From: an uncultured Eubacteriales bacterium
GTDB lineage: Bacteria; Bacillota; Clostridia; Oscillospirales; CAG-272
Reading direction: 5' to 3'
DNA: 64,000 nucleotides
Assembly (NCBI GenBank): GCA_934446065.1
Contig: CAKSDP010000003.1
Span: 35,349-99,348, forward strand
Part shown: piece after piece, positions 279-42,939 of the stretch
Position numbering within the stretch: position 1 is the stretch's first letter
How the letters are laid out: each line of letters begins with the position of its first letter
The notes under the pieces: generated by a model
What the model was told of the DNA's origin: nothing
Databases searched by the model: none
Seen by the model: only the letters and a program-made list of their open reading frames with translations
Position numbers and translations under genes: made by a program

Positions 279-280
279 AA

Positions 281-3796: not shown

Positions 3797-3812
3797 ATAC
3801 GGCTCCTTTCCG

Positions 3813-4541: not shown

Positions 4542-4544
4542 CGC

Positions 4545-5453: not shown

Positions 5454-6162
5454 CACAGCACTCCTCCGCAAGAAATATATTAAGTATATCGGATATACTC
5501 TTTACAGTATATGTTGCACTGCACGGCGGATATTCGCGCCCACGTGTCACGAGGACGGAATCAAGCCCTGACGCCTCAGCTCCGCCTATATCGGAGGTCA
5601 CGGAATCGCCGACGACGACGTAGTGCGAACGGTCGCTGTCACCGACGGAGCGCAGAACAAAATCAAAAAACTCCGGCGACGGCTTATTTTTCCCGATATC
5701 CTCGGAGATAAATAGACCTGACAGGTACGGCGCGAGCGGCGAATTGTCAAGTCTGCCGTGCTGCACCGACGACGTACCGTTTGTCACAATGTACAGGCGG
5801 TACTTCTGCGCAAGCTTTTTGCAGGTTTCAAGCACACCGGGGACGAGCATTCCCTCGTGAGAAAGCGATATCATATATTCGGCGGCAAAGGAGGGGGCGT
5901 TTGTCTCAGAGAGGACGCCGCTTTCGCGGAAGACGCGTGAAAAGCGCTCGATTTTAAGCTTTTCGCGCGTGGTCTCGCCGCGCTCGAGAGCCTTCCACAG
6001 CTCGTCATTTACGCGATGATACAGCGAGTACAGGGCACAAGGCTCGTAATCGCCCTCGGGCGAGAAGCGGGCAAGCGTATGGAAAAACGCAGCCCGCTCA
6101 GCCGCCGCGAAGTCAAGGAGAGTATCGTCCGCGTCGAGGAGAATGTATTTATAATTCATCAT
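5446..6162 (-). CDS. HAD-superfamily hydrolase (YjjG-like 5'-nucleotidase family)
   Basis: Motif I LLDADDTLLDF at N-terminus; motifs VVGDS and D-S-xxD near C-terminus; 238 aa. Confidence 0.7.
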   Translation of the reverse strand: MMNYKYILLDADDTLLDFAAAERAAFFHTLARFSPEGDYEPCALYSLYHRVNDELWKALERGETTREKLKIERFSRVFRESGVLSETNAPSFAAEYMISLSHEGMLVPGVLETCKKLAQKYRLYIVTNGTSSVQHGRLDNSPLAPYLSGLFISEDIGKNKPSPEFFDFVLRSVGDSDRSHYVVVGDSVTSDIGGAEASGLDSVLVTRGREYPPCSATYTVKSISDILNIFLAEECCDA

Positions 6163-7382: not shown

Positions 7383-7430
7383 TTTTTCACTTGGGGCATA
7401 CGCCCGCCTTTCCTTGTATTGTATATAGAT

Positions 7431-9119
7431 TTAATTTTTTGTGTTTTTCATGCCGTCGAGCATTTCCGCTGCGGCGGCTCTTTGCGCATCCGTTATATCG
7501 ACGCCGCCGATTATGCGGGATATTTCCCTGACGCGGCCGTCGCGGTCAAGCTCCTCGACGGTGCTTTCGGCTCTGCCCGAGACCTCGGTCTTGCGTATGA
7601 ACATATGATGATCGGCGAGGGATGCGATCTGCGGCGAATGTGTGACGCAGAGCACCTGTGCGCCGTCCGCGAGAGAGCGCAGCATACGCCCCATCTTCTC
7701 GGACGTACCGCCGGAAACTCCGGCGTCGATCTCATCAAATATATACGTATCTGCGGGATGCTTCTCGGCAAGAGCGCATTTCAGCGACAGCATGGCGCGC
7801 GCCATCTCGCCGCCCGAGGCACAGCGTCCCAGCTCTGCCGGAGGCTCGCCGGGGTTTGCAGATATCATAAACGTGACGTCGTCGCGGCCCGAAGCCGAAA
7901 ATCCGTCATGCTCGCCTGCGGCGGGGACTATTCTCACAAGGAACCGCACCTTAGGCATATCAAGCTCGGTCATATACGCGCACACCTTTGCCGACAACTC
8001 ATCTGCGGCGGCGCGGCGGCGCGCGGTAAGCGTATCCGCGATCTTCATTGCAGCCGCCCTCAGCTTCTCATAATCACGTTCAAGCTCATCTATAACGAGG
8101 TCGCTCGATTCGAGTCCGTCGAGGCGGGCTGCTGCGTCGGCTCTGAATTTCTTTATCTCGGCGATCGTTGCGCCGTACTTATTCTTCAGCCGATCGATCT
8201 GCCTCAGTCTCATTTCGGCGGCGTTTATCGTCCGCTCCGGATCGTCGTCCGTATCTATCACCGCTGCGGCGTCCTCAGCCATACCGATAAGCTCATACTT
8301 CATATTTTCAAGCCTTTCGGCGTACTCGTCCGCCTTATCCATCACGTCGCTCATCTGCCTGAAAGCGGCGGCGGCTCTGTCGATAAGGTACGGAGCCGAG
8401 CCTTTTTCAGAATCGGACAGCGCACGCGTTATCAGCGTGACGTGACGCGCAAGCTTGTCGGCGGCTCGCGCCTTTATGAGGATGCGCTCGAGCTTCTCGC
8501 ACTCGGCGTCATCCGAAAGCTTGGCTTTGTCGATCTCCTTTATCTGATACGACAGGATGTCGCTCATCATCGCTTTTTCCTTGATGCTCTCGCGGAAGCG
8601 TGCAAGCTCCGTCCTGTTGTCGAGCAGCTTGCGATAGAGTACGGAATACTCGTCCACGAGCGCTTCTGTCTCAGCATACTCGTCGAGCAGGCGCAGGTGG
8701 ACGGATCGGTCGGACAGGGCGCGGCTGTCGCTCTGCCCCGATATTCCGAGAAGAAAATCCGTCATCTCGCGCAGCGCCGCGATCGGCACGCTCTCGCCGT
8801 TGACCTTGGCGCTGCTCCTGCCGTCCGACGTAAAGCGGCGCACGATCTCGATCTCGCCGTTCTCGTCGGCTGCAAGCGACAGTCTCTCGGGCAGCGATTT
8901 TTTGTCCGCAACATCGAATATTGCACGCACGCTTGCAACCGTTTCGCCGCTACGCACCATATCCTTGGATGCTCTTGCACCGGCGATAAGCTCGAGGCTG
9001 TCGATAAGTATTGATTTTCCGGCGCCGGTCTCACCGGTCATGACGGTGAAGCCGTCGGAAAACTCAATATTCACAGACTTCGCAACCGCGATATTCTGTA
9101 TTGAAAGTGCGCGAAGCAC
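7431..9119 (-). CDS. recN: DNA repair protein RecN
   Basis: SMC-like ATPase: Walker A GETGAGKS at N-term, long coiled coil, signature/Walker B near C-term; 562 aa; conserved position after argR. Confidence 0.9.
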   Translation of the reverse strand: MLRALSIQNIAVAKSVNIEFSDGFTVMTGETGAGKSILIDSLELIAGARASKDMVRSGETVASVRAIFDVADKKSLPERLSLAADENGEIEIVRRFTSDGRSSAKVNGESVPIAALREMTDFLLGISGQSDSRALSDRSVHLRLLDEYAETEALVDEYSVLYRKLLDNRTELARFRESIKEKAMMSDILSYQIKEIDKAKLSDDAECEKLERILIKARAADKLARHVTLITRALSDSEKGSAPYLIDRAAAAFRQMSDVMDKADEYAERLENMKYELIGMAEDAAAVIDTDDDPERTINAAEMRLRQIDRLKNKYGATIAEIKKFRADAAARLDGLESSDLVIDELERDYEKLRAAAMKIADTLTARRRAAADELSAKVCAYMTELDMPKVRFLVRIVPAAGEHDGFSASGRDDVTFMISANPGEPPAELGRCASGGEMARAMLSLKCALAEKHPADTYIFDEIDAGVSGGTSEKMGRMLRSLADGAQVLCVTHSPQIASLADHHMFIRKTEVSGRAESTVEELDRDGRVREISRIIGGVDITDAQRAAAAEMLDGMKNTKN

Positions 9120-9135
9120 ACTATCACCTCCGGAT

Positions 9136-9588
9136 TCAGATTCCGGCAGACTTCTCCATCTGCCGCGAGAAATTTTTCGCCGCTTCCTCGCTCTTCGTGA
9201 CGACGATTATCGTATCGTCGCCCGCGACGCAGCCGAGCACCTCGTCCGATTTCTGCGAATCGACACCTGCCGCTACGGCGTTGGCAAGTCCGGGATACGT
9301 TTTGAGGACGACGATATTTCCGGCGCACGCCGCGCTCTTCAGCGAATGGGATATCGTGACGCCGTATACGGCGGTGCCGTCGTTTTTGCCGTCGTCCGGC
9401 AGGATGTACGTATATCTTCCGTCGGTTCCCTGCGCTTTTGTTATTTTCATTTCACGGATATCGCGCGACACAGTTGCCTGCGTCACATCGTATCCGGCGT
9501 CGCGGAGATGGCTTATAAGCTCATCCTGCGTTTCCACGCCGACATTCTTTATGATATCCGTTATTTTTTGCTGCCTCTTTGACTTCAT
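9136..9588 (-). CDS. argR: arginine repressor ArgR/AhrC
   Basis: 150 aa; N-terminal winged HTH (QDELISHLRDAGYDVTQATVSRDIREM) and C-terminal oligomerisation domain (GDDTIIVV). Confidence 0.85.
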   Translation of the reverse strand: MKSKRQQKITDIIKNVGVETQDELISHLRDAGYDVTQATVSRDIREMKITKAQGTDGRYTYILPDDGKNDGTAVYGVTISHSLKSAACAGNIVVLKTYPGLANAVAAGVDSQKSDEVLGCVAGDDTIIVVTKSEEAAKNFSRQMEKSAGI

Positions 9589-9622
9589 TTACCGAATCCC
9601 CTTCATCTGATCTGAAAATCCG

Positions 9623-10516
9623 TTAATTTGACTTTGACGCCGATGCTCTGTACTTCGACATTTTACGGCTGAGGATATCGAGGAATCCCTGATCCTTTAC
9701 CCGCACGAGCTTTGCACGCACAGGGGATTTTTCGATTATCACGCGGTCGCATTCGTTTATGTGAAACGTTTCGTCGCCGTCGAGCGTCAGAAAGACGCTG
9801 TTCTCGCGGCAGCTTGCCGATCGGAACTCGAGCACGGAATTTCCGCTGTACAGCACGGGGCGCTGCTGCAGCGAATGCGGGCAGATCGGAGTCGATATGA
9901 TAATATCGAGTGCCGGATCGGCGACGGGACCACCCGCCGACATTGAATATGCGGTAGAGCCGGTCGGGGTCGCGAGTATCATTCCGTCGGAGCGGTTTGC
10001 CTGTGCGAGCACTCCGTCACAGTACAGATCGAAGTTGAGGATACGCGGGACGGGGCCGTTTGACAGCACGGCATCGTTCAGCACCGGACGTGCGGGGCGC
10101 ACGGTTTCGTCGGGGCGCTCTATTCTCACGTCGAGCATTATCCGATCGTCGGTATGGAAATCGCCCTGCACTATGCGTCGGACAAGCTCGGTTTCCGACA
10201 CCTCAAGCTCTGCGAGGTATCCGAGATGTCCCATGTTCACACCGAGCACGGGGACGCCGAACGGCGCGAACTCGCGCGCTGCTTTGATTATCGTTCCGTC
10301 GCCGCCGAAAACGACGACAAGCTCGCTTTCGAGGTACTCCTTCTCTGGCGGAAGCACGTCCGCACGATCCACGAGCATAGACTCGTTTGCCCTCTTATCG
10401 GATGCGACAAGGCGGCACCCCATGAGACTCAGCTCGTGAAGAAACGCCGCGACCCGCAAATGCTCGTCTTCGGCAAGCGGGCGGCATCTTACAGAAACCG
10501 TTTTCAGCATCGGCAC
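9623..10516 (-). CDS. nadK: NAD(+) kinase
   Basis: GGDGT motif (VVVFGGDGTIIKAA), NE/D short motif, 297 aa; conserved tlyA-nadK-argR-recN order. Confidence 0.9.
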   Translation of the reverse strand: MPMLKTVSVRCRPLAEDEHLRVAAFLHELSLMGCRLVASDKRANESMLVDRADVLPPEKEYLESELVVVFGGDGTIIKAAREFAPFGVPVLGVNMGHLGYLAELEVSETELVRRIVQGDFHTDDRIMLDVRIERPDETVRPARPVLNDAVLSNGPVPRILNFDLYCDGVLAQANRSDGMILATPTGSTAYSMSAGGPVADPALDIIISTPICPHSLQQRPVLYSGNSVLEFRSASCRENSVFLTLDGDETFHINECDRVIIEKSPVRAKLVRVKDQGFLDILSRKMSKYRASASKSN

Positions 10517-11289
10517 ACCTCTTTTACTGTGGATTCAAAGCTTTCGCGGCTTACATTGCCGTCGGTGGAATTTTTGAGATATATTAGAAACTCGCGATTT
10601 CCGTCGCCGCCGGTGACGGGAGATGCGGCAACACCGCAGACGGACAGTCCCGAATCGACTGCGCACTTTGCGACGCGCATCACCGCGAGCGCGTGAGATT
10701 TCGGGTCACGGACGATCCCGCCGTGCGAGAGCGCCGAGCGGTCAAGCTCAAACTGAGGCTTGACAAGTCCGACGTAGATACCGTCGGGGACAAGTATCTC
10801 GCCGATCTGCGGCAGAATAAGTGTTTGAGAGATAAACGAGACGTCGAGCACGGCGATATCGGCAGAATAGCCTACATCCTTCGATGTAAGAAATCTTGCG
10901 TTGAAGCCCTCGAGGGAGCGGACACGCGGATCAGACGCGATACGCGGATCAAGCTGACCGTGACCCGAATCGACTGCGCACACTGTTGCGGCGCCGCGTC
11001 GAAGCAGACAATCGGTAAATCCTCCGGTAGAGGCGCCGATATCGACCGCGCGCATATCCGCGACGTTTATGCCGAAACATTCGAACGCGAACTCGAGCTT
11101 TACGCCGCCGCGTCCGACATAGTCATGGACAAGTCCTGTAAGCGTGACGGTTTCGCTGCCCGAAAGCTCGAACGATGCTCTGCGGTCGGTTCTGCCGTCG
11201 ACTGAGACAAGTCCCGCCTTTATGCACTGCGCCGCCATGCTCCGACTCTTGACAAGCCCCGTTTCCTTGAGGTAGACGTCGAGCCGCAT
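10504..11289 (-). CDS. tlyA: TlyA-family 16S/23S rRNA 2'-O-methyltransferase (haemolysin-A-like); true start probably MRLDVYLK at 11289 overlapping ispA stop
   Basis: N-terminal S4 domain (RLDVYLKETGLVKSRSMAAQCIKAGLVSVDG) plus FtsJ-like SAM methyltransferase (AVDIGASTGGFTDCLL); ORF-track 26 aa N-extension lacks homology. Confidence 0.8.
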   Translation of the reverse strand: MRLDVYLKETGLVKSRSMAAQCIKAGLVSVDGRTDRRASFELSGSETVTLTGLVHDYVGRGGVKLEFAFECFGINVADMRAVDIGASTGGFTDCLLRRGAATVCAVDSGHGQLDPRIASDPRVRSLEGFNARFLTSKDVGYSADIAVLDVSFISQTLILPQIGEILVPDGIYVGLVKPQFELDRSALSHGGIVRDPKSHALAVMRVAKCAVDSGLSVCGVAASPVTGGDGNREFLIYLKNSTDGNVSRESFESTVKEVCRC

Positions 11290-12185
11290 CAGAATTTTCT
11301 CGTACAGAGGAAGCGTGCAAGGTCGGTGAGGGTCTCGCTGCCGGGCAGATCCTCGATCGCGCGGCACGCGGCTTCCGTCAGTCCGCGATACTCCTTTACC
11401 GCTTCGTCAGTTGTCATATAGTAGGTTGACGTATGCTTGTCGTTTTTCTCGTCGCTGCCGATCGGTTTACCTACAAGCGCCTCATCACCGATCACGTCGA
11501 GGACATCGTCCTGTATCTGGAAGGCAAGACCGAGTGCAATGCCGTAGGTTTGCAGGCTGTCAAGCACATCGTCGGAAGGCTCGTCCGTTGCGGCGTAATA
11601 GCCGGCAAACAGCGCCGCACAGATCAGCGCTCCTGTTTTGAGGTTATACATATGGCAGAGCTTTTCGTAATTGTCGATCGTACCGGAGAGGTCAAGCTCC
11701 TGACCGCCCGCCATTCCCGCGACACCGGAGAGTCTGCCGTAGCTGCGGCCGACTGTAACTGTTGCCGCAGGGGTAGCGAACTCGTTTGAGGCTACGGTCT
11801 GGAACGCAAGAGACAAGAGCGAATCTCCGGCAAGGAGAGCCACGGCTTCACCGAATGCCTTATGGCACGAGGGTTTTCCGCGCCGCATATCGTCGTTGTC
11901 CATAGCCGGAAGGTCGTCATGGATGAGCGAATAGGCGTGGATCATCTCGATCGCAGCCGCAAACGGCGCTGCCGCGTGCTCATCTGCCCCGAACATTCTT
12001 GCGGTCGCCATTGTAAGAAATGCGCGTATACGCTTTCCGCCTCCGAGGACGGAATATCTCATTGCATCCGCGAGCGGCGTCACGCCGATCGCATCGTATG
12101 AGAGATAGCCCTCAAGGACGCCCTCGATGAACTCGGAATTCTCTTGAAGCAGGGCTTTTACCCTGTCGAAATTGTACTCACTCAT
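11289..12185 (-). CDS. ispA: polyprenyl (farnesyl/geranylgeranyl) diphosphate synthase
   Basis: Two aspartate-rich motifs LIHDDLPAMDNDDMRRGKPSCH and FQIQDDVLDVIGD; 298 aa. Confidence 0.85.
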   Translation of the reverse strand: MSEYNFDRVKALLQENSEFIEGVLEGYLSYDAIGVTPLADAMRYSVLGGGKRIRAFLTMATARMFGADEHAAAPFAAAIEMIHAYSLIHDDLPAMDNDDMRRGKPSCHKAFGEAVALLAGDSLLSLAFQTVASNEFATPAATVTVGRSYGRLSGVAGMAGGQELDLSGTIDNYEKLCHMYNLKTGALICAALFAGYYAATDEPSDDVLDSLQTYGIALGLAFQIQDDVLDVIGDEALVGKPIGSDEKNDKHTSTYYMTTDEAVKEYRGLTEAACRAIEDLPGSETLTDLARFLCTRKF

Positions 12186-34369: not shown

Positions 34370-35761
34370 ATGAACATACTTAAAAAATACATAGGCACGC
34401 GCGAATTCTACCTTCGCGTATTCGCACTGGCGATCCCGATAATGGTGCAGAACGGCATCACGAATTTCGTCAGTATGCTTGACAACATAATGGTCGGACG
34501 CGTCGGAACGCTCGAGATGACGGGAGTTGCCGTGGCAAACCAGCTCTTCTTCGTATTCTTCCTCTGCGTTTTCGGTACGGTATCGGGTGCGGGAATATTT
34601 GTGGCGCAGTTCCACGGAAACGGCGACACCGAGGGCATCCGCCGCACGTTCCGTTTCAAGCTGATATCAAGCTTTCTGATATCGGCGATCGGTATCGGAA
34701 TATTCCTGCTGTTCGGTCGCGATCTTATATCGATGTATCTGCGCGGCAGCGGAGAGAACAACCCCGCCGATGTTGCGGCGGCGCTCGAATTCGCATGGCA
34801 GTATCTGCTCATTATGCTCGTGGGGCTTTTGCCGTACGCGATCGTGCAGTGCTATTCGAGCACGCTGCGCGAGACCGGGCGTCCCCTGCTCCCGATGGTC
34901 GCGGGCGTCATCGCGGTCATAACGAACCTCGTGCTGAACACCGTTCTGATATTCGGCAAGCTCGGCGCTCCCCGCCTCGGCACGAACGGTGCCGCGATCG
35001 CGACGGTCATCTCCCGCTTTGTCGAGCTTCTGATCGTATCCGTTTGGACGTACATGAAGCGGCGCGACAATCCGTTCATCGTAGGTGCGCTGAAAAGCCT
35101 CCGCGTTCCGCTCTCGCTTGTGCGCGACATCACGATCAAGGGAATGCCGCTCATGCTGAACGAGACGCTGTGGTCCGCCGGCATCGCAATGCTCAGCCAG
35201 TGCTACTCCGAGCGCGGCATGGCGGTCGTTTCGGCGAACACGATCTGCCAGACCTTCTCGAATGTGTTTTCAACTGCTTTCATGGCGGTCGGCACCGCGA
35301 TCGGCATCATTCTCGGTCAGATGCTCGGAGCAGACAGAAAGGACGAGGCACGCGACTCGGCGCGAAAGCTGATCACATTCTCGGTCATGGTATCCGTTAT
35401 CGTATCGGCGCTGTTCTTTGTCGCATCGGCGTATATCCCGCTGATGTACAACACGTCCGACGAAATACGCATGACGGCTCACCGCATGATGCAGATATGC
35501 GCTGTGGCGATGCCGCTCGACGCGTTCGCGAACGCCGCGTACTTTACCCTGCGCTCCGGCGGAAAGACGCTTATAACGATCCTGTTTGACAGCTGCTTCG
35601 TCTGGGTCGTAAGCGTTCCAACAGCATACTTCCTGAGCCGGTACACTGCCGTGTCCATCTTCGTTATCTACGCGATATGCCAAGGCGAAAACTTCATAAA
35701 AGACGTGTTCGGCTTCATTCTCGTAAAGCGCGGCATTTGGGTAAAGAATATTGTAAAGTAA
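34370..35761 (+). CDS. MATE-family efflux transporter
   Basis: 463 aa, 12 TM, tandem MatE repeats (GTLEMTGVAVANQLFF...; GMPLMLNETLWSAGIAMLS). Confidence 0.85.
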   Translation: MNILKKYIGTREFYLRVFALAIPIMVQNGITNFVSMLDNIMVGRVGTLEMTGVAVANQLFFVFFLCVFGTVSGAGIFVAQFHGNGDTEGIRRTFRFKLISSFLISAIGIGIFLLFGRDLISMYLRGSGENNPADVAAALEFAWQYLLIMLVGLLPYAIVQCYSSTLRETGRPLLPMVAGVIAVITNLVLNTVLIFGKLGAPRLGTNGAAIATVISRFVELLIVSVWTYMKRRDNPFIVGALKSLRVPLSLVRDITIKGMPLMLNETLWSAGIAMLSQCYSERGMAVVSANTICQTFSNVFSTAFMAVGTAIGIILGQMLGADRKDEARDSARKLITFSVMVSVIVSALFFVASAYIPLMYNTSDEIRMTAHRMMQICAVAMPLDAFANAAYFTLRSGGKTLITILFDSCFVWVVSVPTAYFLSRYTAVSIFVIYAICQGENFIKDVFGFILVKRGIWVKNIVK

Positions 35762-35770
35762 AAAAGCATA

Positions 35771-35799
35771 AAAAGCCTGTACGCTCGGACAGGCTTTTT
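35771..35799 (+). terminator. rho-independent terminator after MATE gene
   Basis: AAAGCCTGT-acgctcgg-ACAGGCTTT followed by TTTAT. Confidence 0.7.
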
Positions 35800-35807
35800 A
35801 TCGCGGG

Positions 35808-35836
35808 GTTTACATTACAGGAAAATCATGTTATAA
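35808..35836 (+). promoter_or_regulatory. near-consensus sigma-A promoter for the LRR-dockerin gene: TTTACA-17-TGtTATAAT
   Basis: TTTACA 35808-35813, 17-nt spacer, TGtTATAAT ending 35836; AAAGGA RBS before ATG 35900. Confidence 0.55.
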
Positions 35837-35899
35837 TTAAGAAGGAATTACATAATACACAGAAAACTGATACAAGAAAAATGAAAGGACTCCTCGATC

Positions 35900-36988
35900 A
35901 TGAGAAAAATGCTATCACTATTTCTTGCAGCGGTTATGATAATTTTGGCTGTTCCGATGACCGCAGTCACAGTCTCGGCGGAGACGGACGGGTTCTACAC
36001 TTACAGGATCGCCGACAGACAGGCGATCATAACCGGCGTGGACAGAACCATCAGCGGAAACGTAACGATCCCGGACAAGCTCGGCGGCTATCCCGTGACC
36101 GAGATAGGTGTGCGGGCATTCTACAAATGCACAAATCTCAAGAGGGTCACTGTGCCGGGCAGCGTGAAAGCGATAGGCGACTACGCGTTTATGGACTGCT
36201 CGAACCTCACGGGGCTTGTGATCCTGAAGGGAGTAACGAGCATCGGCAACAGCGCGTTCTGCAACTGCTTCGCTCTCACAAGTGTGACTCTCCCGGACAG
36301 TGTCACGATCATCTCGGATTTTGCATTTGAAGCCTGCAAAAATCTCAAAAGCATCACGCTTCCGAACAGTGTCACAACTATCGGCGAATACGCCTTCGGC
36401 TTCTGCATAAGCCTTGAGAATATAGACATTTCCGAACGTGTGACGTCTATCAGCACGGGTGCCTTTTACGACTGCGCAAAGCTCACGGACATCGCGCTCC
36501 CCGCAAGCGTCGTTGCCATCGGCAGAAATGCGTTCACGGACTCTGGGCTTGAGGATATATACTACCCCGGAAGCAGCGACAGCTGGTACGGCATTGACAT
36601 ACATAGTGAAAACACAACATTGAACAAGGCAAATGTTCACTTCAGCATTACAGACCCCTCGACGCATTACAAGTACCGCGAAAAGCAGCCGGGAATGTAT
36701 GAGGAGGGCGAACGCGGCTACTACTGCTCCTGCGGATTTACAAAGAATGTCGAAGTGCTCCCCGCACTGAGCGGAACTGCTTACAGTTACAAGGTACTTG
36801 ACGGCGAAGTTACAATCACCGGCACCACAAAACACCCTGAAAACATAGTAATTCCAAGCACTATCGACGGATATCCGGTAACGGGCATTGCGGACAGAGC
36901 ATTCAGGGGGAACCGCGAAATTAAAACCGTGACGATCCAGTCGGGCGTAAAGAGTATCGGTAAGGAAGCATTCAACGGTGTCACATAA
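35900..36988 (+). CDS. secreted leucine-rich-repeat (BspA-type LRR) surface protein, N-terminal part; terminated by in-frame TAA inside a repeat unit
   Basis: Signal peptide MRKMLSLFLAAVMIILAVPMTAVTVSA; repeated about 23-aa units ...C.NL..I.IP.SVT.IG..AF.. Confidence 0.8.
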   Translation: MRKMLSLFLAAVMIILAVPMTAVTVSAETDGFYTYRIADRQAIITGVDRTISGNVTIPDKLGGYPVTEIGVRAFYKCTNLKRVTVPGSVKAIGDYAFMDCSNLTGLVILKGVTSIGNSAFCNCFALTSVTLPDSVTIISDFAFEACKNLKSITLPNSVTTIGEYAFGFCISLENIDISERVTSISTGAFYDCAKLTDIALPASVVAIGRNAFTDSGLEDIYYPGSSDSWYGIDIHSENTTLNKANVHFSITDPSTHYKYREKQPGMYEEGERGYYCSCGFTKNVEVLPALSGTAYSYKVLDGEVTITGTTKHPENIVIPSTIDGYPVTGIADRAFRGNREIKTVTIQSGVKSIGKEAFNGVT

Positions 36989-38632
36989 ATGACGGACATT
37001 ACGATTCCCGACAGTGTTACGAGTATTGGGAATTATGCGTTCTCCGGATGCCCAAAACTTCAGAGTATGATCATTCCAAAGGGCGTAACGAGCATTTCCG
37101 ACGGTATGTTCTACAACTGTTCGGAACTTACGGACGTTACTGTCCACGATAATGTAATAAGCATTGGCGCAAAGGCATTTTACGGTTGTTCAATTCTCTC
37201 AGGCATCGCTATTCCCGACAGTGTTACGAGCATCGGCGAGAAGGCTTTCTGCTTTTGTTTACGTATTTCAAGCATCACAATACCCAAGTCGATGACAAAC
37301 ATCGGAGAATATACATTTTCCTCCTGCACCGGTCTTACGGACATTACGATCCCGAGCAACATAACAAGCATCGGTAATCATGCATTTTTAATGTGCACAA
37401 ATCTTACAAGCATCACTATTCCCGACAGCGTGACAAGCATCGGTATGTATGCATTCAAAGAATGCACAAGCCTTCAAAGCATCGTCATACCAGACAGTAT
37501 AACAAGCATTAGCCGTAATATGTTCGATGGCTGCTCAAGCCTTTCAAGCATTACTGTACCGAGCGGAATAACGGAAATCGAGGTATGTGCATTTCAAAAT
37601 TGCTCAAGTCTTGTTAGTTTCACCATACCCGATGGGTTGACAATAATCAATTCGTCTGTCTTTTCCGGATGCACAAATCTCTCAAGTGTAATCATACCCG
37701 ATAGTGTGACAGAAATTGATGGTAATGCATTCGCCGAATGTTCAAGCCTTGCAAGCATAACGATACCAAACAGCGTGACATATATTGGCTATTCCGCATT
37801 TATTGGCTGCTGCAGTCTTACAAGCATTACAATACCCTATGGCGTAACGGCGATACAAGGCAGCACCTTCGAATCCTGCACAGGTCTCGTAAACATCACC
37901 ATTCCAGACAGTGTAACGGGTATTGGTATGTCAGCGTTTTACGAATGTTCAAGCCTTGTAAGTATAACATTACCCGATAGCATAGAATATATACACCCTC
38001 AAGCATTCTACGAGTGTGCAAATCTTGCAAGCATAACGATACCCGACGGCGTTTCCACCATCTATAGCTACACATTTTCATACTGCAAAAATCTTACAAG
38101 TATCACTATTCCCAAAAGCGTAAAGTTCATCCGTATGGATGCGTTCGGAAAATGCGCAGACCTTAAAGATGTATACTATGCCGGAAGCCGCAAGGATTGG
38201 GAAAATATCGAGATAGAAGAACGCAACGAAGACTTTATTGACGCTTTCGTTCACTACAACATATCGGACCCCGAAGGTCACTACGAGCTTGTAACCACAC
38301 CTCCCACCTGCACGAAAGACGGACGTAGCATTGAGGTTTGCCCCTGCGGACATTCAAAAAATGAGCTCACAATCCCGGCGACCGGTCACAAGTACGAGAA
38401 CGGTACGTGCACGGTCTGCGGCGAAGCAAAGCCCGATGTGATACTCGGTGACGCAGGCGGCGACGGCGCGGTCAGGATCGGTGACGCGATAACGATTCTC
38501 AAGCACGTTGCGGGGTGGCAAGGAATCACAATTGACACCGACACCGCCGACGTGGATGCAAGCGGCAAGGTCGATTTGAACGACGCGATACTTGTTTTAA
38601 GGAAGATCGCCGGATGGGCTGTGGATTTCTGA
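36989..38632 (+). CDS. LRR protein C-terminal part with type-I dockerin; same frame as the upstream ORF, separated only by TAA (probable single disrupted roughly 910-aa gene)
   Basis: At least 17 more LRR units then dockerin duplicate Ca-binding segments GDAGGDGAVRIGDAITILKHVAG and DVDASGKVDLNDAILVLRKIAG; ATG 36989 immediately follows TAA 36986-36988. Confidence 0.8.
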   Translation: MTDITIPDSVTSIGNYAFSGCPKLQSMIIPKGVTSISDGMFYNCSELTDVTVHDNVISIGAKAFYGCSILSGIAIPDSVTSIGEKAFCFCLRISSITIPKSMTNIGEYTFSSCTGLTDITIPSNITSIGNHAFLMCTNLTSITIPDSVTSIGMYAFKECTSLQSIVIPDSITSISRNMFDGCSSLSSITVPSGITEIEVCAFQNCSSLVSFTIPDGLTIINSSVFSGCTNLSSVIIPDSVTEIDGNAFAECSSLASITIPNSVTYIGYSAFIGCCSLTSITIPYGVTAIQGSTFESCTGLVNITIPDSVTGIGMSAFYECSSLVSITLPDSIEYIHPQAFYECANLASITIPDGVSTIYSYTFSYCKNLTSITIPKSVKFIRMDAFGKCADLKDVYYAGSRKDWENIEIEERNEDFIDAFVHYNISDPEGHYELVTTPPTCTKDGRSIEVCPCGHSKNELTIPATGHKYENGTCTVCGEAKPDVILGDAGGDGAVRIGDAITILKHVAGWQGITIDTDTADVDASGKVDLNDAILVLRKIAGWAVDF

Positions 38633-38642
38633 GCGATAAGAC

Positions 38643-38677
38643 AAAAAATGCTGTTACTTTCGTAACAGCATTTTTTC
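38643..38677. terminator. bidirectional intrinsic terminator (perfect 8-bp stem, A-run/T-run on both sides)
   Basis: AAAAAAT-GCTGTTAC-tttc-GTAACAGC-ATTTTTT; sits 11 nt after LRR-dockerin stop and just after the stranded copy of the DUF2156-gene 3' end. Confidence 0.75.
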
Positions 38678-38804
38678 TATTGTTTTCTCAGCAGCAGAAC
38701 ACGGTATACTTCTTCAGCATTTTCACCGGGTGCAGAGAGGATTTTGACTGCCGCAATCCGGGGATGCCCATATCCTCTTCCCTGTTCACGAACTTCACGT
38801 CGGG
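38657..38804. repeat. direct repeat copy A (stranded 3' fragment of DUF2156-like gene: last 38 codons plus 3' flank)
   Basis: About 96 % identical to 41029-41176 (5 mismatches, 1 indel); minus strand encodes ..PDVKFVNREEDMGIPGLRQSKSSLHPVKMLKKYTVFCC*. Confidence 0.85.
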
Positions 38805-39079
38805 ACGGAAACACAAATGAGCGAACGGCTTAGTTCGCTTTCAATGTTCCGTGCCGATGTATATACAAGTCTTAAAACTCAAAAGGTAACTGCTTATGAG
38901 AAGCAGATGCTGTGTGTGGTGCTGTCTTTCAAGCGACAGGGTGACAGTAGTAACTGTCGCGGCACTTGGTATTCAGTTTTTACCCGACCTCGGTCGGCAG
39001 TCTTATTATACCATGTGCAGGGAATTTTTGTTAAAGCGGGCGCATAAAGTATATGGATAACGGGAATACTATTCCGTTT

Positions 39080-39129
39080 CGGCGTAAGCAAAGACACCGC
39101 CGAGAGCAGTTATAGTGCTTGCTCTCGGC
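39080..39129 (-). terminator. intrinsic terminator of the sigma-fusion gene
   Basis: 12-bp perfect stem CCGCCGAGAGCA/TGCTCTCGGCGG (39095-39106 / 39118-39129) followed on minus strand by TGTCTTTGCTT. Confidence 0.55.
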
Positions 39130-39139
39130 GGTAGTTCAA

Positions 39140-40822
39140 TTATATGATCAAATATGCTCCCAGCATCTGTTTGTCATTATCCTTATCAAAGGTTAAATAA
39201 CCTTGTCTGACAGCCTCTTCCAAGACTGCGCCGCGCATAGCAAAAACATTTGCACAAGCGTGATCGATTTGGAATTCATCTTCTTTAAAAAAGTCGGGAA
39301 TTTCTTTATAGATCTGCTCGCGGCAGAACAAATAATGTCGTGTAGCAATCTCTGCTGCTTTACAACGAAGTGCCTCAAACTCTTTGCGTGCATCCGGGGG
39401 CATTTTGCGTGACTTATCCCTATACATAACCATGATAGTCGGAACATATCCCTCATCTGTGCTTTTAATATATCCGTATGTTTCCAATCTTTTTAGTATA
39501 GTCTTGTCTACATCTGAGCTATTACCATCAGCAACTGCCACCATTGCTTGACCGTCTGCATAATTAAGAAACGGAGGCGTCCTATCTTCAATTCCGCCAA
39601 ATTCAAACCTGTATTGACGGAAATAAATTTCAGGCAGATCTTTCTCATCGGGATTTGACACACAACCGCTTAGTCCGACAAAATTCGGCTTGCTGCCGAG
39701 ATAATTTTCCATGCCGAGAAGATCCCATTCTCCTCCGTCGGGACGAAGAGTATGTCCCCAAGAACCGATATTGGTAACCTCTGCCGCATTTTTATTAAAC
39801 GGTTTTAGCGTGTAGGAATTGACAGCATCCGTTTCTGTCATAAGCAGTGCCCATTTCATATCCTCAAACGACTGATACCCCTCATGCCATTTCGGACAAT
39901 TATCGTTTCGCCACTTGATATCATATTCCATGGCTTCTATTACAGCTTTTGTGAGTTCAGGGGTAATTCCGCGCAAATATGCGTAAATCTTTTCCTGCGC
40001 TTCTGCACTTACGATGAAGATATTTGTTTCGTATTGATTCCCGTTTTTCTTCATTAAGGTGGCTTGCGCAAGCGCCGATAGTTCTTCTTCCATATACGGA
40101 AGAGCTACCCCAACCTCCATTGCCAGCTCTTCTGCTGTAGAGGGGTTTCTATAAGCTGCAAGCAGAATGTTTTTGCAGAGCAAACGCGAAATATAATTCC
40201 ATGGTTCACCGCTTTTTCCTACCATTCCGTTCATAACAAACGCAATGTTTTGGGGGTTATAACTAAGCTTTCCGAATTCTCTTGCCATATCCATACCTTC
40301 TTTCAATATGATTCTTGCACGGTGAAGTCTTTGCTGAACCGTACTGATCGAAAGAGAGAGAGATGATGCAATATCACGAACGCTTTTGCTTTCTATATAA
40401 TAGGCAACGACGATATTGCGATAATCGCTTTTTATGAACGCCAACTCTCGCCGAAGCAGAGCCATTTGCTCTGTATGTATTATTTCATCAAGGATGTTTT
40501 TGCTTTCATCCTCAACCTCATAATCGCCGATATCGGAACCGGTTACCGACTCGTTTCGATTATGCTTTACAGTTGCCCATACGGAATAACGATTTCGCGC
40601 GATCTGCCATACCCACGCCGAAAAACTCGTTGGAATCGCCCCTCTGTTCAAAGCCGTTATAATCTGAAGCGCGATATCTTGCGTCAGACCTTCAGCTTCA
40701 ACATTGTTTCCTGTCTTCTTCAAGCAAAAATAAAACAACTTTTCCATATAGTTTTCAGTAAATTCATTGATAAGCTGATCGCACATTCGGTTCGTTTCTT
40801 GCATTTTCTCGCCTCCTTTCAC
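39140..40822 (-). CDS. ECF-type sigma-70 family sigma factor fused to a roughly 370-aa soluble C-terminal domain of unknown function
   Basis: Region 2 (EAEGLTQDIALQIITAL, FSAWVWQIARNRYSVW) and region 4 HTH (SVRDIASSLSLSISTVQQRLHRARIILKE) within first roughly 190 aa; remaining roughly 370 aa hydrophilic, no TM segment, no recognisable motif; 560 aa; low-GC codon usage. Confidence 0.65.
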   Translation of the reverse strand: MKGGEKMQETNRMCDQLINEFTENYMEKLFYFCLKKTGNNVEAEGLTQDIALQIITALNRGAIPTSFSAWVWQIARNRYSVWATVKHNRNESVTGSDIGDYEVEDESKNILDEIIHTEQMALLRRELAFIKSDYRNIVVAYYIESKSVRDIASSLSLSISTVQQRLHRARIILKEGMDMAREFGKLSYNPQNIAFVMNGMVGKSGEPWNYISRLLCKNILLAAYRNPSTAEELAMEVGVALPYMEEELSALAQATLMKKNGNQYETNIFIVSAEAQEKIYAYLRGITPELTKAVIEAMEYDIKWRNDNCPKWHEGYQSFEDMKWALLMTETDAVNSYTLKPFNKNAAEVTNIGSWGHTLRPDGGEWDLLGMENYLGSKPNFVGLSGCVSNPDEKDLPEIYFRQYRFEFGGIEDRTPPFLNYADGQAMVAVADGNSSDVDKTILKRLETYGYIKSTDEGYVPTIMVMYRDKSRKMPPDARKEFEALRCKAAEIATRHYLFCREQIYKEIPDFFKEDEFQIDHACANVFAMRGAVLEEAVRQGYLTFDKDNDKQMLGAYLII

Positions 40823-40940
40823 TCATATAGTGTGGTATTTATTGATTTGCTGACAAAAATATTTTCTTTGTTTTTTCTATTATATCACAATGTTTGCTAA
40901 GAATAAATTGGTTCCGGCAAGGTTACAAGATCTGTTGAAG

Positions 40941-40988
40941 AAAAAGCAAAAGAGAGTACAGCCTTTCGACTGTACTGCCTTTTGTTTA
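40941..40988 (-). terminator. terminator of DUF2156-like gene in its current (post-insertion) context
   Basis: Hairpin AGTACAG-cctttcga-CTGTACT (40955-40976) flanked by A/T runs on both strands. Confidence 0.5.
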
Positions 40989-41028
40989 TCCTATTCGGTT
41001 TTCATATTTCTCCGTTAAGGACATCCCG

Positions 41029-41176
41029 CTTTTCGTAACAGCATTTTTTCTATTCTTTCTCAGCAGCAGAACACGGTATACTTCTTCAGCATTTTCACCG
41101 GGTGCAGAGACGATTTTGACTGCCGCAGCCCGGGGATGCCCATGTCCTCTTCCCTGTTCACGAACTTCACGTCGGG
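41029..41176. repeat. direct repeat copy B (3' end of intact DUF2156-like gene)
   Basis: See copy A; continuous with ORF 41060-41965. Confidence 0.85.
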
Positions 41177-41965
41177 CGCGTCAAGGCTGCGCAGGTATCC
41201 GGTCGAGAGATACTGGTACGCTCCCGGCATATCCTGCATGGCTTTCTCAAAATGCACGAACACCGTATCGCCGACGATCTCCCCGACGGTAAAGCCCGCA
41301 GTCTCGCCGCCCGCAGTGAGGATCGCGCCGGACAGCCCAAGTTCATCCCAATGCTCCGCGAGGTCACATATCGCGGAAAGCTCGGCTGCCGCCATTTTCG
41401 AGCCGTCGGAATAAAGCTCGTCCCATTTTGCGACGAAATCTGCCATCATCGCGGCATTTGTGACGGTCATGGGGATTATTTCGGCGTCCGGATGCATTTT
41501 GCCGAAGCGATTTACGAAGTTTTTCTGCCCGTGGAACTTTCTGCCGGACAGCTCCGATATTTCGGTGCGGTCGTATACGTAGTCCGACCAATCCGGCTCT
41601 TCCGAGGGAAACACGACGTCGAACACCTCCCCGAACATGGGGACATTCTGCTCCGCGACGAAGCAGAAATACATATTCATACCGCGCCCGTGGGCGTATT
41701 CGCCGATCGCGGCAAGCGCTGTGCGCGGGTCCCCGCCGATCGGGAAAGAGAACATCTCCGTTCCCTCGCACGAGGCGAGAAGCACGACGGAATCGCCGCA
41801 GCGCGCCCATTTCGTATCGTAATAGCCGCGCCACAGGAATGTGGTTCCGAACAGATTATCGCAGATGAGCGGTATCCCCGCCTCCGCTCTCTCAAGATTA
41901 TCACGCTCAAAGACGGCACGAAGATATTCGATATCAGCGTATTCGAGCCTCTTAAACTCAAGCAT
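41060..41965 (-). CDS. DUF2156-like protein (MprF/LysX C-terminal-domain-like, GNAT-fold acyltransferase family), function unknown
   Basis: 301 aa; family assignment from memory of the YdaK/DUF2156 pattern (FVAEQN..., LRSLDAPDVKFVNREEDMGIPGLRQSK); moderate certainty. Confidence 0.45.
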   Translation of the reverse strand: MLEFKRLEYADIEYLRAVFERDNLERAEAGIPLICDNLFGTTFLWRGYYDTKWARCGDSVVLLASCEGTEMFSFPIGGDPRTALAAIGEYAHGRGMNMYFCFVAEQNVPMFGEVFDVVFPSEEPDWSDYVYDRTEISELSGRKFHGQKNFVNRFGKMHPDAEIIPMTVTNAAMMADFVAKWDELYSDGSKMAAAELSAICDLAEHWDELGLSGAILTAGGETAGFTVGEIVGDTVFVHFEKAMQDMPGAYQYLSTGYLRSLDAPDVKFVNREEDMGIPGLRQSKSSLHPVKMLKKYTVFCC

Positions 41966-42162
41966 ACTGCACCTTTCCGGCGAAATCGCCTTGATGTTTC
42001 ATTTATGTGCAAAATATTGTTTTGTTATTTATTACCAATATGCGGCGTTGATTTTTGTGCAATATTTTTCGTCGTTATCACTTGAACAATATGGCAAAAT
42101 GTGGTATCATATATATACAACAGAACCAAATATTACCAAACGCCGATATAAAGGAGAAAATC

Positions 42163-42939
42163 ATGGATAAAAACGCAAAGATTCTGATAGCAGACGAAAA
42201 CTCAGATGTGAGAAAAGGATGCATGGCATCGCTTCACAAGTACGGCTACCGCAATGTGGAAGAAGCGTCAAACGGGGAGGAAGCGCTCCACATTATAAAC
42301 CGCTATCATCCCGACATCGTGGTTGCGGACGTATGGCTGTCGAAGCTCGACGGGATCGGGCTTGTCCGCCAATGTTCCGAGACGGATTTCACTCCGGACA
42401 AAGCTCCGTCGTTCATCATTACATCACTTGTTGCAAACCAGAACATATTTGTCGAAGCGATCAGCGCAGGCGCGGTGATATGTCTGCCGAAGCCGATCGA
42501 TCACATCAGTCTGTGCGATCACATCACCACCGTCATCCACAACAGAGCCGAGGGTGTCTACAAAGCTGCGGATATGTCGGGGCTGCCCGATATTGAGGCG
42601 CAGGTCACGAAGATCATTCACCAGATCGGCGTACCCGCTCATATCAAAGGTTATCAGTATCTCAGAAGCGCCATTCTTATGGCGATCAGCGACAACGAAG
42701 TGATAAACTCCGTAACGAAGATCCTCTACCCGTCAGTTGCAAAGAAGTATTCGACCACCACGTCCCGCGTAGAACGCGCGATCCGTCACGCGATCGAGGT
42801 TGCATGGGACAGAGGTGACATCGACACGCTCAACTCCTATTTCGGATACACGATCCAGAACACACGCGGCAAGCCGACCAACAGCGAATTCATCGCGATG
42901 ATCGCCGACAATCTCCGTCTGAAATACAAGATCCGCTGA
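42163..42939 (+). CDS. spo0A: sporulation master regulator Spo0A (start at [13 protein letters not shown]; ORF-track start 42055 is an upstream extension)
   Basis: Receiver domain ([10 protein letters not shown]...[14 protein letters not shown]) plus diagnostic Spo0A_C signature [17 protein letters not shown]...[30 protein letters not shown]...KPTNSEFIA; AAAGGAG RBS; TTGAAC-17-TGgTATCAT promoter upstream. Confidence 0.9.

Follow-up and report, generated by a model that had tools for sequence, protein, structure and literature searches.

A putative ECF-type sigma factor with a large fused winged-helix domain, carried on a truncated mini-element and belonging to an abundant family of gut Clostridia

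The locus described here raises the question of how a sigma factor with a C-terminal extension of about 370 residues might be controlled, and how its gene came to lie on an insertion in a clostridial genome. The window, that is, the whole stretch of 64,000 nucleotides that was analysed, contains on its minus strand an open reading frame of 560 residues (39140..40822, from GTG 40822), which a sequence-only reading had described as an ECF sigma factor with a long C-terminal domain. That frame and its two parts are indeed present; its start is better set at 40804 (Table 1). The true start is most likely this ATG, because of its spacing from the AGGAGG sequence and because 554 residues is the length of most homologues and of the product in independent gene calls.

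Table 1. Coordinates of the features discussed in the text, in window positions
Feature	Position	Strand	Description
Sigma-fusion CDS	39140..40804	-	554 aa from ATG 40804
Shine-Dalgarno AGGAGG	40812..40817	-	8 nt ahead of ATG 40804
Sigma-70 region 2	40589..40756	-	aa 23-78 (560-aa numbering); Pfam PF04542
Sigma-70 region 4 HTH	40313..40432	-	aa 131-170; Pfam PF08281
C-terminal domain	39143..40267	-	aa 186-560; two winged helices, long helical hairpins, small beta-sheet
Winged helix 1 (wHTH1)	40010..40183	-	aa 214-271; acidic recognition helix LPYMEEEL
Winged helix 2 (wHTH2)	39425..39562	-	aa 421-466; internal duplicate of wHTH1, in variable tail
ECF-like promoter candidate (proximal conserved block)	40826..40855	-	TGTCAG (40855-40850), 17 nt, CACTATA (40832-40826)
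Distal sigmaA-like promoter, extended -10	40879..40907	-	TGATATAAT 40887-40879; weak -35 TTTATT 40907-40902
Intrinsic terminator of sigma-fusion gene	39096..39131	-	same hairpin after other family members
Left-end module of element	40955..41029	-	terminal repeat GCGGGATGTCCTTAACGGAGAA (41029-41008), conserved ~45 nt, hairpin 40976-40955
Element tail	38812..39034	-	promoter TTAACA-18-TATAAT with TG (39034-39005), ~185-nt RNA (predicted), terminator 38839-38820
8-bp microhomology (ACGTCGGG / CCCGACGT)	38797..38804		truncated element tail joined to host DNA
Direct repeat copy A	38658..38804		duplicate 3' end of LPG_synthase_C-like gene + half of terminator
Direct repeat copy B	41031..41176		true 3' end of gene 41060-41965
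Intact bidirectional host terminator hairpin	38643..38676		element occupies loop of other copy

The sigma module and the C-terminal domain

The region 2 and region 4 signatures noted in the sequence-only reading were confirmed by profile searches. Pfam Sigma70_r2 scored 29.8 bits against a curated cutoff of 24 and Sigma70_r4_2 37.5 bits against 25.7, PF04545 was passed as well (24.4 against 24.1), and NCBIfam TIGR02937 (sigma70-ECF) scored 71.1 against 42.9, its match spanning model positions 3-163 of 165. The same Pfam/NCBIfam search gave no match to Sigma70_r3 or r1, and all NCBIfam subfamily and equivalog cutoffs (SigW, SigM, SigX, SigZ and others) were missed, at 58-66 bits against 147-243. 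Region 2 is conserved (0.6-0.69) and contains the canonical ECF 2.2-2.4 motifs AEDLTQDI and F-AWVWQIARNRY, while the nearest solved structures found by a PDB sequence search are those of the ECF sigma factors SigW, SigE and SigH. At the sequence level, the gene product appears to be a genuine ECF-type (group 4) sigma factor.

The remaining residues, from about 186 to 560, found no match in Pfam, NCBIfam, PHROGs, PADLOC or PDB sequences. The highest 19-residue hydropathy window of the protein is only 0.91, so that it has no transmembrane segment, and the earlier description of the C-terminal ~370 residues as soluble and not assignable to a family therefore stands for the libraries searched. An AlphaFold model of the C-domain (pLDDT 93; pTM 0.90 for the domain alone against 0.69 for the full-length protein) consists of two duplicated winged helices and long helical hairpins, and hhalign aligned its wHTH1 and wHTH2 halves with a probability of 91% (E 9e-7). 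Fold matches were to PadR/ArsR/Phr-like winged helices combined with long-helix units, and neither the PDB nor the viral fold searches matched anything beyond ArsR-like winged-helix cores. As modelled, the fold is a novel arrangement, undescribed in the libraries and structure databases searched. The possibility that this region is a common, characterised domain routinely fused to sigma factors in Clostridia is thus borne out only for the fusion, which is routine; as a characterised domain it is recognised by no library or structure database.

Could this region, for which the sequence-only reading had suggested a fused anti-sigma/sensor module, be a classical anti-sigma domain joined to the sigma module in cis, that is, a degenerate class I ASD/zf-HC2 domain wrapping sigma2/sigma4? 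It does follow directly after sigma4, and a separate anti-sigma gene is absent from the inserted unit; zf-HC2 reached 12.1 bits in Pfam, below its cutoff of 22.2 (E=0.22, aa 274-297), no ASD structure was among the fold matches, and we consider this explanation most improbable. Pfam also found neither a SnoaL-like domain after sigma4, where the fold is winged-helix/helical instead, nor TPR repeats in the extension. A transposase or recombinase was rejected, since the invariant residues of the C-domain (S187, Y188, P190, N218, G238, I270, W366) do not include an acidic, His or Ser/Tyr catalytic set and its fold is non-enzymatic.

The conserved head, the variable tail and the promoters

A sigma factor fused to a large C-terminal domain had been thought unusual for Clostridia, which proved not to be the case. 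At 50% identity the C-domain family forms 566 clusters, and at 90% identity >1700; nearly all of its members come from Clostridia/Oscillospiraceae MAGs of the human and ruminant gut and have the same sigma plus C-domain architecture. Complete genomes that contain members include CP091718.1. They frequently occur as tandem paralogs in arrays; other giant ECF extensions adjoin them, and at some loci they are flanked by TnpV genes. The stand-alone homologues of the C-domain that the sequence-only reading had proposed to look for exist as forms of ~382 aa, but all of these come from contigs of 1.3-3.6 kb, and L086, the only form whose frame is open upstream, is truncated at a contig edge, so genuine stand-alone proteins were not accepted. 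L085, an apparent stand-alone C-domain protein, is ambiguous.

Conservation along the protein is uneven, with values of 0.54-0.74 across residues 21-280 against 0.21-0.48 across residues 281-560; wHTH1 is conserved to the same degree as the sigma domains, and wHTH2 falls within the variable part. The N-module has a dS of 0.5-0.8 against nearly all relatives, whereas the C-modules form classes with 28-37% amino acid identity and saturated dS; in L003/L004 this pattern of divergence is inverted. At the DNA level, an identity of 82-87% ends at residue ~183-190, and where two loci reach 91-97% identity, the match is confined to the gene with 45-136 bp ahead of it and 37-60 bp behind it. The conserved head consists of the promoter, the leader, the sigma module and the first winged helix, and the variable tail of residues 281-560. 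Tails appear to have been exchanged between family members by recombination at the domain junction, and the promoter-gene-terminator cassette appears to spread horizontally among gut Clostridia.

Two promoters, one sigmaA-like and one ECF-like, stand ahead of almost all members and are conserved at ~46 family genes or loci, with the family consensus TAGACT-N17-TGATATAAT for the distal and TG(C/T)A(A/C)C-N17-CACTATA for the proximal one, the latter resembling the ECF promoters of the Bacillus sigX/sigM/sigW type. When 597 kb were searched for the two boxes with a regular expression, 48 of the 49 matches lay upstream of family genes and 1 elsewhere, and no target promoter beyond the family genes was found in the 64-kb window and ~600 kb of loci. 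The idea that a conserved promoter motif precedes both this gene and the neighbouring LRR-dockerin gene consequently holds for the first half only: a PWM found the sigma-fusion gene's own block and nothing in front of the LRR-dockerin gene or any other gene in the window. The 45-nt block is uniformly highly conserved, spacer included, which is more than two promoter hexamers require. The 5' leader forms no conserved RNA structure by RNAalifold (-0.47 kcal/mol, no covariation). Since the heads are nearly identical, one promoter would be recognised by every paralog, an odd arrangement for a signal-specific regulator.

These features also bear on whether the protein is a true sigma factor at all. 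It might instead be a multi-HTH DNA-binding regulator whose sigma4 and winged helices bind operators such as the 45-nt block, the sigma2-like part being vestigial or serving dimerisation. A chain with three HTH-type modules, an upstream block longer than a normal promoter and units that are typical of repressor folds would all suit such a protein, yet it would leave unexplained the conservation of region 2 with its canonical motifs and full-length TIGR02937 coverage; moreover, wHTH1 has an acidic recognition helix, poorly suited to binding DNA, and wHTH2 belongs to the variable tail. We regard this explanation as unlikely.

The element that carries the gene

The gene had been described as carried on a horizontally acquired insertion, and this description is upheld. 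It is the single ORF of a 2237-bp unit (38797-41033) bracketed by 147-bp direct repeats; the unit shares 96.5% identity with units at other loci, whereas the host genes common to those genomes are only 74-77% identical, and its GC content is 0.40-0.43 against ~0.55 in the flanks. It holds neither an anti-sigma nor a recombinase gene, and the LRR-dockerin gene falls outside it. The same unit occurs in three contexts, namely purA|spoIVB (L001/L002), LPG_synthase_C|dockerin (the window, L058, L059 and L078) and L077, and terminal inverted repeats are present at both ends in L001, L002, L059 and L077. Such repeats were found only for the window lineage and L033 and at most family loci were not seen; around family genes in general none rose above the shuffled background, L033 excepted. 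The hairpin in the left-end module is terminator-like. The element tail is common to L001, L002, L059, L077 and the backbone elements L070, L076 and L080, and its predicted RNA is hairpin-rich (z=-2.3). An Rfam search of 35000-42500 found nothing at E<=1, so this non-coding tail corresponds to no known RNA.

At a distance of 50 bp from its right end, a larger relative, L070, has a gene (10054-11808) with Resolvase, Recombinase, Zn-ribbon and DUF4368 domains, a large serine recombinase that is absent from the window unit. Related elements share their ends and vary in cargo, and their insertion sites are terminator-hairpin loops, where AAA(A) borders the element on each side. The window copy thus seems to be the cargo of a ~2.35-kb recombinase-less mini-element from a serine-recombinase element family. 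None of the loci showed a tyrosine integrase, and an integron gene cassette with an attC site, suggested by the palindromic ends, seems unlikely, the orientation of the ends not fitting R'/R'' cores on reading. Like MIC/MITE-like elements, these have short TIRs bounding passenger genes without a recombinase (L001, L059, L077, L074, L083), and like the TnpX-type/Tn4451 family they include a member, L070, with a large serine recombinase beside its right end, TnpV lying near some loci. Unlike both, they insert in terminator-hairpin loops with AAA(A) on both sides, and have a left module of ~45 nt with its own hairpin and a tail RNA predicted to be promoter-driven.

In the window only the left terminal repeat is present, the right end being missing at the microhomology join. 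Both the host gene (41169-41176) and the intact element tail of L059 contain the octamer CCCGACGT, and the window copy, which is truncated and immobile, has probably lost its right end through an illegitimate join at this 8-bp microhomology; this join would also have generated the 147-bp direct repeats. A 147-bp target-site duplication by transposition was rejected: the two copies are 3-4% divergent (5 substitutions and 1 indel), there is no right TIR, and the octamer occurs in both parents. The insertion is present in all assemblies that have the identical flanking gene, and a search of metagenomes recovered no empty site.

Being the only protein gene on the mini-element, beside a predicted promoter-driven RNA of ~185 nt, the sigma-fusion gene could in principle serve the element rather than host physiology, for instance through control of excision or integration by a serine recombinase acting in trans, or through transcription of the tail RNA. 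TnpV genes near some family members and a likeness of wHTH1 to the transposon-transfer assisting protein TTRAP point the same way, but the latter is weak (E 0.011) and far below the Pfam threshold, most family members (about 50 loci) have neither element ends nor tail, and sister elements sharing these ends function although their cargo is entirely different. We consider such a maintenance role very unlikely.

A role in conflict or defence deserves similar attention, as the same cargo slot holds DruE/Druantia-like genes, an N6-methylase with specificity subunit (RM) and AbiEi/AbiEii. Here the winged-helix tail would sense phage or other mobile-element proteins, or invader nucleic acid, and unleash the sigma head to commandeer RNA polymerase or to drive a toxic or protective programme, so that a single gene would confer abortive-infection-like or anti-MGE protection and a sigma factor would act as immune effector. 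The recombining mosaic of constant heads and variable tails, the spread of a single-gene cassette by HGT, the tandem arrays and the lack of a local regulon would agree with this, and conserved N-modules recombined with divergent C-modules are likewise seen in Avs/STAND sensors and polymorphic toxins, which also form tandem arrays and spread by HGT. On the other hand, the head is a sigma factor rather than an NTPase, nuclease or toxin-delivery module, and the family has neither sequence or fold likeness to those systems nor their defence-island enrichment: a survey of 129 neighbouring proteins at independent loci yielded regulators, transporters and housekeeping genes with few defence genes and no general defence-island association. 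PADLOC HMMs matched the C-domain with 0 families and the full-length protein only with weak HTH-type noise, PHROGs gave no match, and no relatives were found on plasmids or in IMG/VR, one weak partial match in a phage bin aside; regulators, too, are ordinary cargo of mobile elements. To our knowledge, a sigma-fusion conflict module has no experimental precedent, and we think it quite unlikely that the family works in this way.

Possible mode of action and relation to known systems

In our judgement there is an even chance that the protein is a self-contained, autoregulated 'one-component' ECF sigma factor, the cassette of which is shuffled horizontally and sits here on a truncated mini-element. 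The N-terminal sigma2-linker-sigma4 module would bind the RNA polymerase core and a fixed type of promoter, and the fused cytoplasmic C-domain would replace a separate anti-sigma factor and gate sigma activity. The wHTH1 region (aa ~186-275) may provide a constant interface with sigma4/sigma2 or RNA polymerase, and the distal ~280 residues, made up of helical hairpins, the small sheet and wHTH2, may act as the variable, specificity-determining sensor of a ligand or partner protein. Expression would depend on the constitutive sigmaA-type promoter together with the proximal ECF-like promoter, the latter possibly serving positive autoregulation. The promoter-gene-terminator cassette would move horizontally, its heads and tails being reshuffled at the domain junction, and the mini-element, derived from the terminator-loop-targeting serine-recombinase family, may have been mobilised in trans before its right end was lost, either on entry into the window genome or during rearrangement within it.

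Among sigma factors, those of the ECF type that have fused extensions represent the 'one-component systems'; only a few kinds of extension (SnoaL, TPR, Cys-rich) have been investigated, for the most part in Actinobacteria and Proteobacteria. The activity of ECF41, ECF42 and ECF238 is regulated by fused C-terminal extensions, and the extensions described include SnoaL-like domains (ECF41/56/205/294/295), TPR (ECF42), Cys-rich regions (ECF238/287/288) and DUF1835 (ECF264) (PMC8999054, PMC7826278, PMC3426412). Similarly, in the present family a sigma2-sigma4 core is followed by a cytoplasmic extension that should gate sigma activity in cis; a cognate anti-sigma gene is missing, and the gene is apparently autoregulated. 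Yet the extension is ~370 aa long rather than 20-200 and has two winged helices and helical hairpins without SnoaL, TPR or Cys motifs, and the family resides in gut Clostridia, where it is MGE-borne and multi-copy, with a modular and recombining tail. Bacillus subtilis SigX, SigM and SigW, the best NCBIfam and PDB sequence matches of the protein, share its dual promoter layout of sigmaA plus putative autoregulation and have a similar -35-like TG(C/T)AAC with a 17-nt spacer; the family differs from them in its -10-like element, CACTATA rather than CGT-type, and in having no membrane anti-sigma partner. The SigI/RsgI systems of cellulolytic clostridia also consist of multiple paralogous alternative sigma factors, and the window gene adjoins a dockerin protein gene. 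SigI, however, forms a separate sigma70 lineage, has a C-terminal domain of its own and is paired with a membrane partner, RsgI (PMC6056542, PMC10575876), the NCBIfam SigI model did not match the sigma-fusion protein, and there is no promoter link between its gene and the dockerin gene.

The family is thus very abundant, unannotated in human and ruminant gut Clostridia, and has an extension much larger than those studied before and structurally undescribed. It evolves in the manner of a modular sensor, with a constant head and swappable tails, as a compact cassette that is sometimes carried on a mini-element. The terminator-loop element family, with a cargo slot shared with defence systems, may be useful for the discovery of accessory genes. 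If the tails bind defined ligands or partner proteins, these sigma factors would constitute a large new class of signal transduction in the gut microbiome, as well as natural orthogonal single-protein transcription switches for Firmicutes.

An ECF sigma factor with an uncharacterised C-terminal domain

The minus-strand frame that had been read from sequence alone as an ECF-like sigma factor with a fused domain (the sigma fusion, 560 aa) indeed carries both sigma-70 regions above their curated Pfam cutoffs (Sigma70_r2, aa 23-78, 29.8 bits against 24; Sigma70_r4_2, aa 131-170, 37.5 bits against 25.7). The ECF superfamily model TIGR02937 of NCBIfam matches aa 18-175 (71.1 bits, cutoff 42.9), and the closest solved structures by sequence are those of the ECF sigmas SigW, SigE and SigH; every named Bacillus subfamily model in NCBIfam scored far under its own cutoff. 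The start, however, has to be moved: the true coding sequence most likely begins at ATG 40804, given an AGGAGG box 8 nt upstream and the length of 554 aa shared by most homologs and by gene calls made independently on further assemblies of this locus. The remainder, residues ~186-560 (the C-domain), was described as soluble and impossible to place, and it remains so: the highest 19-residue hydropathy window in the protein is only 0.91, which leaves no membrane segment, and the region has no match in Pfam, NCBIfam, PHROGs, PADLOC or PDB sequences.

The AlphaFold2 model of the whole protein, built on an alignment of 59 sequences, reached a pLDDT of 87.5, with disorder in the sigma2-sigma4 linker (96-130) and at the sigma4/C-domain junction (178-185), while the C-domain modelled alone gave a pLDDT of 92.9 and a pTM of 0.90. 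It is predicted to contain two winged helices, wHTH1 and wHTH2 (see table). Since the two halves of the domain align over the recognition helix and wing in a profile-profile comparison (91% probability, E 9e-7), these are an internal duplication. In wHTH1, the acidic character of the recognition helix (LPYMEEEL) argues for a protein-protein role rather than DNA binding.

The same architecture is abundant. A full-length search returned >1700 clusters at 90% identity; the best 120 relatives (553-560 aa, 76-97% identical) belong to MAGs of Clostridia, Eubacteriales and Oscillospiraceae, with 'sigma-70 family RNA polymerase sigma factor' as their sole annotation. When the C-domain was searched exhaustively by itself, 566 clusters at 50% identity emerged (237 at E<=1e-10), in agreement with a profile search. 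Nearly all are 520-560 aa long with the match beginning at residue ~170-185, and hence represent the same fusion. Of the stand-alone homologs that the sequence-only reading had proposed to seek, together with their partners, no clear case was recovered: every ~382-aa version lies on a 1.3-3.6-kb contig, and locus L086 is a truncation, because its frame continues through sigma4 up to the contig edge. At L085 (cluster of 39 sequences), the C-module is preceded by the last sigma4 helix only (L085 1-260), and upstream of it by unrelated sequence with stop codons; either recombination has left an 'orphan tail' here or the assembly is chimeric. Among 56 loci from GTDB species representatives, tandem paralogs are frequent, and the family genes also adjoin further ECF sigmas whose giant extensions are of other kinds. 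With so many clusters in gut-Clostridia-type MAGs, such paralogs and such neighbours, the view that the fusion is unusual in Clostridia fails. The C-domain, though widespread, is uncharacterised, and the sigma fusion belongs to a large ECF sigma group, undescribed so far, with a new type of extension.

An ECF sigma of 1053 aa (L009 2716-5877; also L050), whose ~870-aa extension is of another kind and contains a DUF3108-like region, sits immediately upstream of the family member; cytoplasmic ECF extensions of giant size seem to be commonplace in such genomes. In L062, L063 and L064 (9001-14317), a regulator islet lies between PTS genes and asnB/amt/glnA; it consists of two sigma fusions in tandem and, after them, a tandem pair of XRE-type HTH proteins.

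Constant head and variable tail

Conservation is 0.6-0.74 across sigma2, sigma4 and wHTH1 (to ~aa 275) and falls to 0.21-0.48 over aa 281-560. Between proteins only 46-52% identical overall, the first ~600 bp of DNA are still 82-87% identical, and this identity ends at 40253-40275 (aa 183-190). By the Nei-Gojobori method, the N-module has a dS of 0.5-0.8 against nearly all relatives, whereas the C-modules form classes of about 75% or 28-37% amino acid identity with dS from 1.3 to saturation; the pattern is reversed in L003 and L004, whose C-module is the nearer of the two. Together, these comparisons indicate that the mosaic is due to recombination at the domain junction, beyond unequal constraint. 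The sigma carried by a sister element (L083) is 27% identical over sigma2-sigma4-wHTH1 (E 1e-28) and shows no similarity further on, so that the architecture 'sigma + wHTH1 + variable distal domain' predates the window subfamily.

An inserted unit and its cargo slot

That the gene is carried on an insertion is borne out: the 2237 bp between two 147-bp direct repeats match L001 and L002 at 96.5% identity (there the neighbours of the unit are purA and spoIVB), whereas host genes common to the window genome and L001 are only 74-77% identical. The repeats, which differ by 5 substitutions and 1 indel, are the duplicated 3' end of the LPG_synthase_C-like gene. In L001, L002, L059 and L077 the unit extends ~112 bp further, to a right end that is the inverted complement of its own left end (GCGGGATGTCCTTAACGGAGAA), giving a full element of ~2.35 kb with ~21-bp terminal inverted repeats. 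The window copy, which occupies the dockerin/LPG terminator hairpin at its GAAA loop, lacks the right terminal repeat and ends at the octamer CCCGACGT, which is found both in the intact element tail and in the host gene (41169-41176). The simplest reading is homology-facilitated illegitimate recombination, in which one crossover would have fallen in or beyond the host gene and a second event would have joined at the 8-bp microhomology, truncating the right end; this would account for the duplication, for the 3-4% divergence between its copies (donor versus recipient) and for the lost end. A search of metagenomes yielded no empty site, and neither did other assemblies with the same flanking gene.

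Positions of features of the sigma fusion, its element and its surroundings (window nucleotides, protein residues or comparison loci)
Feature	Position	Strand	Remarks
Sigma fusion ORF	39140-40822	minus	coding sequence most likely 39140-40804
Conserved upstream region, distal part	~46 loci		TAGACT-N17-TGATATAAT, extended -10
Conserved upstream region, proximal part	~46 loci		45-nt block TG(C/T)A(A/C)CCAAATTCAAAAATGCCACACTATATGGATGAAAGGAGG
Distal extended -10 in the window	40887-40879	minus	
Proximal boxes in the window	40855-40850; 40832-40826	minus	TGTCAG; CACTATA; 17 nt between
Direct repeats	38658-38804; 41031-41176		147 bp
Element-tail transcription unit	38812-39034	minus	small, self-contained; no Rfam match
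BspA-type LRR + dockerin gene	35900-38632	plus	in-frame TAA at 36986-36988
Beta strand (AlphaFold2)	N-terminal of wHTH1		C-domain element 1
Winged helix 1 (AlphaFold2)	aa 214-271		C-domain element 2
Long helical hairpin (AlphaFold2)	aa 273-342		C-domain element 3
Small sheet (AlphaFold2)	aa 365-406		C-domain element 4
Winged helix 2 (AlphaFold2)	aa 421-466		C-domain element 5
More long helices (AlphaFold2)	aa 476-539		C-domain element 6
Cargo	L001, L002, L059, L077		window-type sigma fusion
Cargo	L083		different sigma fusion
Cargo	L076		remnant (deletion) of L083-type sigma fusion
Cargo	L074		517-aa membrane-anchored protein, no assigned identity
Cargo	L075, L079, L080, L084 (e.g. L080 3656-9150)		N6-adenine methylase, specificity-subunit-like protein, AbiEi/AbiEii toxin-antitoxin
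Cargo	L070		DruE (PADLOC E 9.5e-170) and 918-aa partner; Druantia-like

When metagenomes were scanned for the left end, 19 loci emerged, and their left flanks were of at least 10 different kinds. The left module comprises ~45 conserved nt and a terminator hairpin whose stems vary among loci yet remain paired; the tail has a strong promoter (TTAACA-18-TATAAT with TG, 11/12) and a hairpin-rich RNA of ~185 nt (z -2.3) closed by an intrinsic terminator, and between the two lies a cargo slot. The left neighbour of the methylase-bearing cargo is an XRE-HTH + TPR regulator. In L070, L076 and L080 the tail leads into an HTH_36 gene, followed in L070 by a TnpX-like large serine recombinase (Resolvase + Recombinase + Zn-ribbon + DUF4368) with the right-end repeat 50 bp beyond it. 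The outer flanks of this ~11.8-kb integrative element (59-11876) are perfect reverse complements, which places it exactly within a terminator-hairpin loop and points to an element family targeting terminator loops. The sigma-carrying unit is best seen as a miniature recombinase-less relative of such serine-recombinase elements, presumably mobilised in trans.

Most other family loci lack these element ends, yet between unrelated contexts they share gene, promoter and terminator at 91-97% identity, in a cassette-like manner. At L033, the family gene is flanked, at -242 and +292, by an imperfect inverted repeat of 44 bp whose core is a palindromic TCCTTAAGGA; a second lineage of mini-elements may end there. 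Genes for TnpV (PF14198) lie next to family members or on both sides of them in L008 (5489-5860 and 8093-8467), L006 and L026, hinting at Tn4451-like carriage in other lineages. In L059 (3740-3770) and L077 (2521-2570), a second left-end-like repeat (TGATGTCCTTAACGGATAA) and hairpin begin 10 bp past the right terminal repeat and form with it a long palindrome. This might reflect a second element in tandem, or else an end of composite structure.

Possible autoregulation and function

The ~100 nt upstream of the family genes are conserved in ~46 loci. No conserved RNA structure was found in the proximal 45-nt block, so it acts at the DNA level, and its layout resembles that of B. subtilis sigX/sigM/sigW-type promoters and the usual pairing of a sigmaA promoter with an autoregulatory one. 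A conserved motif, sought both upstream of the gene itself and upstream of the LRR-dockerin gene, proved to be present at the former but not the latter: a PWM scan of the 64-kb window found the self site alone, and of the 49 sites that a relaxed two-box pattern gave in 597 kb, 48 lay upstream of family genes. Neither scan revealed a local regulon or a link between the sigma fusion and the LRR-dockerin gene. In the latter gene, whose region also has a low GC content (0.43-0.52), the in-frame stop is directly followed by ATG (…ACA TAA ATG…), which makes it a nonsense pseudogene or, alternatively, a pair of coupled ORFs, of which the second, dockerin-bearing one has no signal peptide of its own.

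The model with the best support is a one-component ECF sigma that would regulate its own gene and in which the fused domain would stand in for an anti-sigma factor, by analogy with the regulatory fused extensions of ECF41, ECF42 and ECF238 (PMC8999054, PMC7826278, PMC3426412). In such a protein, wHTH1 would serve as the constant interface and aa 281-560 as the variable sensor. The weak points of this model are that the scans revealed no regulon and that near-identical heads imply cross-recognition among paralogs. A role in genetic conflict would fit the head/tail mosaic, the horizontal transfer of the gene and a cargo slot common to defence systems; yet the 129 neighbours counted at independent loci include few defence genes and consist mostly of XRE and AraC regulators, ABC ATPases, TnpV and housekeeping genes, and the family is absent from phage, plasmid and viral collections apart from one weak, partial hit in a phage bin, so that we consider such a role improbable. 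With its modular tails, cassette mobility and a defined mini-element, the evolutionary behaviour of this family is more notable than the fusion itself.
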